Source of the DNA: a virus
DNA length: 10,230 bases
Virus genome (UHGV): UHGV-0083157
Reading direction: 5' to 3' (one strand)
Positions 1 to 736 of this stretch are shown piece by piece. The notes under the pieces were generated by a model. That model was given only the letters and a program-made list of their open reading frames with translations. It had not been told where the DNA came from and did not search any database. A program made the position numbers and the translations under genes. Position 1 is the stretch's first letter; each line of letters opens with the position of its first letter.

Positions 1-66
1 TAGTTTATATGGTTAAAATTCGAGTTTTGCAAACTTGGGAACTGAGTTCAATTCTCAGTGACTCCA
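1..66 (+). tRNA. tRNA-Ala (anticodon TGC), 5' end truncated by window edge (window starts at about tRNA position 8)
   Basis: Manual fold: D-stem 3-6/16-19, anticodon stem 21-25/33-37, loop TTTGCAA (26-32), T-arm CTGAG-TTCAATT-CTCAG (42-58), 3' acceptor strand 59-65 with T at position 70 (consistent with G3:U70 Ala identity), discriminator A66, encoded CCA 67-69. Confidence 0.7.
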
Positions 67-500: not shown

Positions 501-713
501 ATGAAGCCTTATGGTAGACACGGTAAAGTTGAAATTGCAAGTTGTGGTTGCTGTGCTTCTCACGATGGTGAAGAAGATTACTACAAGTGGCGTATAGACC
601 ATCGTAGACGCTTTCTCAGAAGAGATAAGAAGAGAGCTAGACAGGAATCTCAAAAGAACATTGCAGAATTAGTTCAAATGGATAGAGCAGCAACCTACGA
701 AGTTGTTTGTTAG
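501..713 (+). CDS. Hypothetical small basic protein (70 aa, Cys-x-Cys-Cys motif, Arg/Lys-rich); 3' end overlaps tRNA-Arg
   Basis: ATG with strong SD at optimal spacing; open frame to TAG 711-713. The last ~50 nt of coding sequence coincide with tRNA-Arg (663-736), so this may be spurious. No recognisable domain. Confidence 0.35.
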   Translation: MKPYGRHGKVEIASCGCCASHDGEEDYYKWRIDHRRRFLRRDKKRARQESQKNIAELVQMDRAATYEVVC

Positions 714-736
714 GGGTTCGAATCCCTTATTCTGCA
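663..736 (+). tRNA. tRNA-Arg (anticodon ACG)
   Basis: Acceptor GCAGAAT (663-669) pairs perfectly with ATTCTGC (729-735); TA 670-671; D-arm GTTC-AAATGGATA-GAGC; anticodon stem GCAAC/GTTGT (690-694/702-706), loop CTACGAA (695-701); T-arm AGGGG-TTCGAAT-CCCTT (712-728); discriminator A736; CCA 737-739. Confidence 0.75.

Follow-up and report, generated by a model that had tools for sequence, protein, structure and literature searches.

ORF 501–713, a small reading frame that continues into the gene for tRNA-Arg(ACG), is probably a genuine but accessory small gene, and its tRNA-encoded tail is probably accidental, a consequence of the absence of an 82-nt segment that is present in a longer allele. 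The window analyzed here is the whole stretch of 10,230 nt (UHGV virus genome UHGV-0083157), which, judging from sequence similarity, belongs to a Felix O1-like myovirus (Ounavirinae) and represents its tRNA cluster, with EcSzw-2 and SUSP1 as its nearest relatives. Region 400–1320 shows 98.6% identity to Escherichia phage EcSzw-2 and 98.2% (~98%) identity to SUSP1/SUSP2 (Suspvirus, Ounavirinae), and the 250 Felix O1-like records matching this region constitute the sample of relatives used below. The ORF is already known, being annotated in ~40 phage genomes as a hypothetical protein overlapping tRNA-Arg. The annotated orthologues with this overlap include those of SUSP1, Moogle (gp84, with an RBS feature), Sf13 (gp18), and Mordin. 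The present analysis suggests an explanation for this annotation oddity, which recurs in dozens of Felix O1-like genomes: a real gene with an accidental, tRNA-encoded end. The case illustrates that an overlap between a CDS and a tRNA is neither to be removed automatically as an artefact of gene calling nor to be taken for regulation.

Architecture of the reading frame and the tRNA cluster

The features of the locus are listed below by coordinates, strand, and source.

407–484, + strand: tRNA-Leu(CAA), the upstream neighbour (ARAGORN; Rfam RF00005, 44 bits)
490–494, + strand: Shine-Dalgarno (SD) sequence AGGAG, 6 nt ahead of the ATG (sequence; alignments)
501–713, + strand: ORF with an ATG start, 70 aa (mechanical ORF list)
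501–662, + strand: conserved coding core, codons 1–54, PHROG 10765 (codon-position statistics, homologues)
543–563, + strand: C15-G-C17-C18-x-x-H21 motif (four-sequence alignment)
603–641, + strand: basic stretch RRRFLRRDKKRAR (sequence)
660–665, + strand: junction ATT/GCA, at which the expected RNase P site 662/663 is also the point of the missing 82 nt (alignment with Silverhawkium; L036–L041)
663–713, + strand: ORF tail, codons 55–70 (AELVQMDRAATYEVVC) plus TAG, read from the tRNA-Arg gene (ARAGORN, ORF list)
663–739, + strand: tRNA-Arg(ACG) with encoded CCA (ARAGORN)
759–1316, + strand: DUF7338 gene, located between tRNAs like ORF 501–713 (Pfam PF24027, E 3.8e-61; PHROG 2143)
2847–2864, + strand: terminator-like hairpin and T-run past the last tRNA of the cluster (weak, consensus scan only)

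As the preliminary description of this DNA had proposed, the ORF is preceded by an AGGAG sequence at good spacing, and its 3′ 51 nt (663–713) lie inside tRNA-Arg. The description counted the last 17 codons as tRNA-encoded, which is correct for codons but not for residues, as they comprise 16 sense codons and the stop. The tRNA-Arg boundaries that it gave, 663–736, agree with the Rfam match (RF00005, 59.6 bits against a gathering score of 29) and extend to 739 in ARAGORN when the CCA is counted. The tRNA carries an ACG anticodon, adopts an approximately cloverleaf fold, and is kept in all relatives, whether or not an ORF lies upstream. The 5′ end of the tRNA (662/663) falls exactly between codons 54 and 55, and RNase P cleavage at this site would precede the stop codon of the ORF, so that the geometry described earlier is correct. 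The stop codon, TAG, corresponds to tRNA nt 49–51, comprising the last base of the variable loop and the first two bases of the T stem. A TAG is met in all three frames of tRNA-Arg within its first 51 nt (nt 49–51, 8–10, and 21–23); therefore, any ORF fused to this tRNA ends inside it.

The window contains 12 complete tRNA genes on the + strand, and one more is cut by the window start (ARAGORN, Rfam). The cluster exhibits a tRNA-punctuated layout, in which ORFs abut tRNAs on both sides. It looks like one transcription unit, because a consensus scan, which is weak evidence, detected no sigma-70-like promoter on the + strand in 1–2700. The ATG of ORF 759–1316 is located 19 nt past the CCA of tRNA-Arg and its stop 8 nt ahead of tRNA-Gln, while ORF 1774–2508 starts 17 nt past the preceding CCA and stops 2 nt ahead of the next tRNA. 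The ATG of ORF 501–713 lies at a similar distance, 16 nt, from the CCA end of tRNA-Leu; no in-frame stop precedes tRNA-Arg in this ORF, and in the 80-aa allele described below the stop is placed 1 nt before the tRNA. Since both neighbouring ORFs stop shortly before their tRNAs, a stop ahead of the tRNA would be the native design of the cluster. ORF 501–713 looks like a damaged instance of this design.

Selection on the core and the tail, and the protein family

The codon analysis of the core was based on 13 unique sequences and covered codons 1–54. Third codon positions account for 14 of the 23 variable columns (P = 0.006), and pN/pS is 0.17 in the ORF frame versus 2.08 and 0.61 in the other two frames, a modest signal drawn from 21–23 variable columns in closely related, recombining genomes. 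When only the truncated alleles, which lack the 82 nt, were considered, the third position was found in 12 of 21 variable columns (P = 0.02), with a pN/pS of 0.18. A tblastn search revealed an intact ORF in 42 phage records from Suspvirus and Mooglevirus. No frameshifts were found in these records, and the 41 truncated ones, which span the two genera, contain neither a frameshift nor a stop. The sole indel in the core is an in-frame deletion of 3 nt in Sf14. The comparison of synonymous and non-synonymous variation that the preliminary description had called for thus bears out a conserved frame, and codons 1–54 display the properties of a protein-coding gene under selection.

The tail, inside tRNA-Arg, presents a contrasting pattern. 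Coding selection, assessed in the same way as for the core, was not detected on codons 55–70: of the 7 variable columns, 1 falls at the third position, with a pN/pS of 1.41. Among the relatives, the changes in this part leave the anticodon and T stems of the tRNA paired. Because of the contrasting pN/pS values and the stem-preserving changes, the core appears to be selected as protein and the tail as tRNA. Codons 1–54 are best regarded as a real, selected coding sequence, and the 16 tRNA-encoded residues as a passive appendage that is apparently unselected as protein. The earlier suggestion of a chance frame through a tRNA consequently survives in part. It suits codons 55–70, where the open frame running through tRNA-Arg appears to be no more than chance, but not the pre-tRNA part, which is conserved as coding sequence and seems to be more than that.

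ORF 501–713 matches PHROG 10765 at E 4.6e-51, with residues 1–70 on profile positions 1–70 of 70. The members of this family (SUSP1 AVU07_agp135/ALH47027.1, Moogle gp84, Sf13 gp18, and Mordin_86) are the same 70-aa ORF at the same place, with 91–99% identity. The window copy differs from them by one private substitution, T32I (ACA to ATA, 594–596), and by nothing else of substance. The core of PHROG 10765 consists of ~55 residues, in which an MKPYGxxGKVEIAxCGCCxxH motif is followed by a basic helix. An exhaustive HMMER search covering 1.84 billion representatives identified two remote homologues, each with its own stop (P0005, 63 aa; P0006, 60 aa; both at E about 1e-7); two further matches, P0007 and P0008, were disregarded for low complexity. 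Both remote homologues reside on phage contigs amid small genes, one of them adjoining a virion structural gene, and no tRNA was found near either on these contigs. They align only to residues 1–56 of the window ORF (PHROG 10765 positions 1–55 and 1–51), and protein-level homologues of the core show 40–46% identity. The residues common to the window protein, P0005, and P0006 are M1, K2, P3, G5, G8, K9, E11, A13, C15, G16, C17, C18, H21, R31, K43, A46, R47, and Q48. Since the remote homologues match residues 1–56 only, the window allele keeps the whole conserved core. What is missing from it appears to be an optional C-terminal extension together with the stop codon. A word search of 5.8 billion proteins returned 4 clusters only, and when the family alignment was run against metagenome, viral, and genome contigs, it yielded only near-identical window-type loci, or nothing.

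When the window ORF is aligned with P0001, P0005, and P0006, the motif residues C15, C17, C18, and H21 do not vary. H21 is replaced by Pro in one metagenomic variant (P0004), and H34 is not conserved. Assignment as a zinc finger would call for four metal ligands that are conserved and spaced in a recognised way, or else for similarity to a family that binds zinc; no zinc-finger or nucleic-acid-binding family match was found in Pfam, NCBIfam, or the PDB. Pfam gave 0 matches at E ≤ 10 and PADLOC none, while the PDB profile search returned only eL41, at E 7.7. An NCBIfam match to PhoH (E 0.08) is sub-threshold and meaningless. As for a remnant of an HNH or homing endonuclease, no nuclease family match was obtained in Pfam, NCBIfam, or PADLOC (E ≤ 1–10). 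AlphaFold2, run with a 5-sequence alignment, predicted with low confidence (pLDDT 61, pTM 0.32) one long helix spanning residues 25–79 of the 80-aa allele, and the RRRFLRRDKKRAR basic stretch falls within it. It is a guess that the putative protein uses the Cys/His cluster and the basic helix to bind either nucleic acid or a host protein. The segment IASC resembles a lipobox; a lipoprotein signal was rejected by eye, as the hydrophobic h-region is absent.

Alleles of the Leu–Arg spacer and the missing segment

The spacer between tRNA-Leu and tRNA-Arg occurs in the following states among the relatives.

Window type: spacer of 178 nt, 70-aa ORF; stop 51 nt inside the tRNA; 41 phage records
Union type: 82 extra nt, 80-aa ORF; TAA, T, then tRNA G1; Silverhawkium gp86 and six loci fetched
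Felix O1 type: spacer of 114 nt, 35-aa ORF; TAG at tRNA nt 8–10; 34 records including Felix O1
ORF-less type: spacer of 11–12 nt, about 5 nt after the CCA; no stop; ~174 of 250 records

The alignments show that AGGAG and the ATG position are common to all three ORF-bearing types. The 80-aa allele was found in Silverhawkium and in at least 10 contigs with P0002, and six loci were fetched from the 10 contigs read. In Silverhawkium gp86 and the six fetched loci, the allele ends with TAA 1 nt before tRNA-Arg. Residues 1–54 of Silverhawkium gp86/P0002 are 93% identical to those of the window, and the SD, the flanking tRNAs, and the type of tRNA-Arg are the same. The difference lies in 82 extra nt encoding KDFRESVLSRRDTNEELKLYGVLIG and TAA; the window allele is without them and ends inside the tRNA. 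These 82 nt encode the last 25 residues and the stop of the 80-aa allele. Removing from the 80-aa form the 82 nt that lie between two TGC triplets gives the window type; the junction is AATAT[TGC]TAAAG...GGATAA[TGC]AGAATT in the 80-aa form and AACAT[TGC]AGAATT in the window, and the second TGC overlaps the first bases of tRNA-Arg. Since the missing segment contains the native stop and its 82 nt are not divisible by three, the frame runs into the tRNA.

The 35-aa ORF of the Felix O1 type shares the position of its SD and ATG with the window ORF and also terminates inside tRNA-Arg, but lacks the Cys-rich core. Its peptide, MSDKSIAKKF...KLYGVLVGKQD, aligns gap-free to residues 50–80 of the 80-aa form (...SRKNIAKDF...KLYGVLIG). 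A tblastn search gave, over residues 50–80, 52–58% identity at the syntenic Felix-type site and one weaker match outside the Ounavirinae (46%). The Felix-type ORF is frameshifted in 2 of 8 variants. In D1-2, for example, a CDS has been annotated for it (QGF20838.1), and in Felix O1 itself it is unannotated.

Under the preferred explanation, the 82 nt would most likely have been lost by deletion between the two TGC triplets. The frame, deprived of its native stop, would run on into tRNA-Arg as far as the first in-frame TAG (nt 49–51). Thereafter, the 16 tRNA-encoded residues would vary with the tRNA stems, while the core would stay under purifying selection. The direction of this change was considered in the light of the diversity among the alleles. 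The full-length alleles are 100% identical over the 82-nt segment, yet as many as 11 of 162 sites distinguish their N-terminal parts (Poisson P = 0.004). The full-length alleles nest among the truncated ones, and the indel is essentially all that separates P0002 from the truncated L018 allele. Because the 82 nt are invariant and the alleles nest in this manner, recent recombination or secondary fusion could have made the 80-aa form.

A reversed history is possible, though rather doubtful. The form ending in the tRNA would be the older one in Mooglevirus and Suspvirus, the 80-aa allele would be a later fusion, at the shared ATTGC, with a divergent Felix-type short ORF, and the tRNA-embedded stop would have been tolerated for long. 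That the 82-nt segment shows zero diversity while the 162 nt of the N-terminal part differ at up to 11 positions is consistent with this order of events, as is the presence of ATTGCA at the would-be crossover in both the window type (I54–A55) and the Felix type (I6–A7). The remote homologues, with just 60–63 aa, are about as long as the core, and the Felix type, too, ends inside the tRNA (TAG at nt 8–10). However, some earlier truncation or rearrangement would still be required to leave a core flush against the tRNA with no stop, and a donor of the 82 nt is absent from the databases searched, where the best match is 52–58% identical at the protein level. Moreover, ORFs 759–1316 and 1774–2508 both stop just ahead of their tRNAs. 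Recombination has clearly shuffled the Leu–Arg spacer locus, and possible alternative histories include repeated deletion at this microhomology and a secondary fusion at the ATTGCA that the window and Felix types share. The tRNA-encoded tail is a by-product under either direction; a reversed history makes it one that has been tolerated longer.

tRNA processing, translation, and dispensability

The processing steps considered here are those expected from what is established about RNase P, RNase E, and tmRNA. RNase P would cut at 662/663, and an RNase E-type cut is expected in the AUUUU past the CCA of tRNA-Leu. The excised 178-nt message would possess an SD and an ATG and no stop. On this stop-less message, tmRNA would rescue the ribosomes and tag the 54-aa product for degradation. 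An RNase P-cut transcript ending at 662 would represent a classical non-stop message, as predicted here from the DNA, and the locus gave no sign that the phage exploits tmRNA rescue. The full 70-aa product would arise only from uncut precursors, mainly through ribosomes close behind RNA polymerase, and trailing ribosomes would reach tRNA nt 49–51 before the T-arm is free to fold. Since the full product would require an uncut precursor, a lower protein yield is expected, and not regulation.

In tRNA-punctuated mitochondrial transcripts, the tRNA processing enzymes define the mRNA ends, and incomplete stops are completed by polyadenylation. Like the window, these transcripts and the T4 segB region have ORFs packed between tRNAs in one transcription unit. 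Whereas mitochondria complete their stops, nothing does so at the window ORF, and the overlap looks accidental. The T4 segB gene is embedded in a phage tRNA cluster, and mRNA structure is proposed to hold back its translation (PMC2330249). It encodes a GIY-YIG homing endonuclease and has its own stop, unlike the window ORF.

The preliminary description had also raised a regulatory switch, in which translation and tRNA maturation compete on one transcript. Were the coupling evolved, ribosomes reading the Arg-rich leader into tRNA-Arg would keep the tRNA from folding and from being cut by RNase P, the cut would in turn end translation prematurely, and Arg decoding and the supply of tRNA-Arg would form a feedback. 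Such a coupling is very improbable, even though the stop is inside the tRNA, the cleavage site lies between codons 54 and 55, and 9 Arg codons occur in the pre-tRNA part. Two independent spacer types (window and Felix) terminate inside the tRNA, and the arrangement persists with purifying selection on the core. Nevertheless, evidence against the switch comes from the 80-aa allele, which stops ahead of the same tRNA, from the retention of the tRNA without any ORF in most relatives, and from the RBS knock-down in SUSP1, which produced no phenotype. Remote homologues with similar basic regions are not located beside tRNAs, and CGY, the codons read by anticodon ACG, make up 3 of the 9 Arg codons, the other 6 being AGA (2 CGY and 5 AGA in the RRRFLRRDKKRAR stretch). 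The TAG of the tRNA is present even where it is unused, in the union-type tRNAs, and the tail residues show no protein-level constraint. Just as improbable is a functional overlap in which translation and RNase P cleavage exclude each other on a given transcript and the translational state of the infected cell would thereby set either the output of tRNA-Arg or a burst-limited dose of the small protein. With regard to an attenuation leader for tRNA-Arg, no run of cognate codons was found among the Arg codons (3 of 9 CGY) and no terminator-like site in 485–760, and most relatives have the tRNA but not the ORF. The related alleles, which stop before the tRNA, 10 nt inside it, and 51 nt inside it, provide a natural test case for competition between translation and RNase P.

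It is also highly implausible that the 178-nt spacer is selected as a non-coding RNA that insulates the flanking tRNAs or aids their processing, with the ORF being incidental. The spacer folds better than its shuffles (z −2.8 for the window type and −3.0 to −4.4 for the Felix type), a closing helix between the SD region and the 3′ part of the spacer is formed in both types from different sequences, and the SD pairing of the Felix type exceeds a synonymous-recoding null (p 0.003–0.02). In the window type, however, controls with synonymous recoding pair the SD just as well (p 0.3–0.6). The third-position bias, the low pN/pS in one frame, and the protein homologues with 40–46% identity argue for coding, and Rfam gives nothing at E ≤ 1 in 485–662. 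The minimum free energy (MFE) fold of the window type pairs the SD with 642–650; sequestration of the SD as a translational control was rejected for this type, as the recoded controls pair it as often. A degenerate tRNA or known RNA in the spacer was likewise rejected on the Rfam result for 485–662.

Returning to a genuine but accessory gene as the preferred explanation, the gene is dispensable. The ORF is absent from the Leu–Arg spacer in ~174 of 250 relatives, with the tRNA retained. In a CRISPRi-ART (transcriptome-wide dCas13d) screen of SUSP1, AVU07_agp135 (88136–88348, phrog_10765) was classified as "Not Fit", with a fitness of −0.18 (KS p 0.70, 6 guides), while agp134, the orthologue of the adjacent DUF7338 gene, was "Semi-Fit" (PMC11879866, supplementary files 8 and 16). 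This screen is the sole experimental data point; no transcriptome or proteome of Felix O1-like phages covering the ORF was found in the literature. The loss in most relatives and the "Not Fit" score are also compatible with a dying gene. It is unlikely, though, that the ORF is a decaying relic, a gene remnant deprived of its 3′ end, with a useless product and heading for the deletion seen in most Felix O1-like phages. Decay would agree with the lack of an own stop codon, the whole spacer missing in ~174 of 250 relatives, the frameshifts in 2 of 8 variants of the Felix-type short form, the score of the SUSP1 orthologue, and the pairing of the SD in the MFE fold. In contrast, the truncated alleles alone retain the low pN/pS (0.18) and the third-position bias (12 of 21 columns, P = 0.02), the 41 truncated records from two genera are free of frameshift or stop, and the sole indel is in frame. 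The SD and the ATG are invariant, and residues 1–56 of the core are fully retained.

ORF layout and borders of the tRNA cluster

Features of the tRNA cluster and its borders in the window
1-66, partial tRNA running off the start of the window (Rfam, 40 bits over model positions 8-71)
234-329, 96-nt gap between tRNA-Thr and tRNA-Val
501, 759 and 1774, ORF starts, each 16-19 nt past the CCA of the preceding tRNA
759-1316, DUF7338 gene (PF24027, PHROG 2143), between tRNA-Arg and tRNA-Gln
1316 and 2508, ends of the two intact cluster ORFs, 8 and 2 nt short of the next tRNA, respectively
2686, end of tRNA-Cys, the last tRNA of the cluster
2766-2794 and 2882-2910, promoter-like sites
2847-2864, terminator-like hairpin between the two promoter-like sites
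2909, start of a short ORF downstream of tRNA-Cys

The three cluster ORFs share a uniform, tRNA-punctuated layout, which suggests that their mRNAs are released by tRNA processing. In the small ORF (501-713, +), codon 32 (594-596) reads ATA (Ile) in the window versus ACA (Thr) in all the related sequences examined, a non-synonymous substitution private to the window. Among the Mooglevirus loci fetched, most (Sf13, Moogle, Sf14, Mordin, and Silverhawkium) lack the DUF7338 gene here and have tRNA-Gln directly after tRNA-Arg, while other CDSs occupy the position in HP1. The SUSP1 orthologue of the DUF7338 gene, agp134, was classified as 'Semi-Fit' in the CRISPRi-ART screen, a published dCas13d knock-down of SUSP1 genes (PMC11879866).

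At the upstream end, the partial tRNA probably corresponds, by synteny with relatives, to a tRNA that the SUSP1 and NBEco004 records list as Ala and the D1-2 record as a pseudo-tRNA. At the downstream end, the arrangement of promoter-like sites and hairpin at 2766-2910 looks like the point where the tRNA operon ends and the next transcription unit begins.

Predicted start-region helix in Felix O1-type spacers

Felix O1-type relatives carry a 114-nt spacer between tRNA-Leu and tRNA-Arg, and a 35-aa ORF ending inside tRNA-Arg. In five such loci (L002, L014, L017, L022, and L044), the spacer is predicted to form a 12-bp helix and a further 4 bp, in which the SD and AUG GGAGAACACUAU are paired with the 3' end of the ORF GUAUGGUGUUCUU. 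The fold z-scores range from -3.0 to -4.4, and the start region is more paired than in synonymously recoded controls (p 0.003-0.02). The pairing is kept in both sequence variants of this spacer, with A-U replaced by G·U, and G·U by G-C. This modeled helix could serve in translational repression or as a processing helix. The window has no counterpart of it. In two further Felix O1-type loci, L045 (SPJ41) and L046 (NBEco005), frameshifts occur within poly-A runs of the 35-aa ORF, reflecting either genuine decay or homopolymer sequencing error.

The tRNA-Thr-tRNA-Val gap and related public records

The + strand of the gap at 234-329 lacks a credible ORF: the only frames there are a 72-aa TTG frame (237-455) that extends across both tRNA-Val and tRNA-Leu, and one of 35 aa that starts at 143 and ends at 250. 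The gap yielded no Rfam match at E<=1. Its predicted fold, at -27.3 kcal/mol (z -2.8), is a single long hairpin with imperfect pairing, the MFE structure being identical to the centroid, and a gap of similar length is also found in SUSP1, D1-2, and Sf13. The gap may act as a processing element, encode a small RNA, or derive from a decayed tRNA.

Felix O1-like tRNA-cluster sequence, approximately 94% identical to the window, also occurs in MG065664.1 (Campylobacter phage A132) and GU169904.1 (Staphylococcus phage SA1). Since such a cluster is implausible for those hosts, this finding suggests contaminated records or chimeric assemblies.
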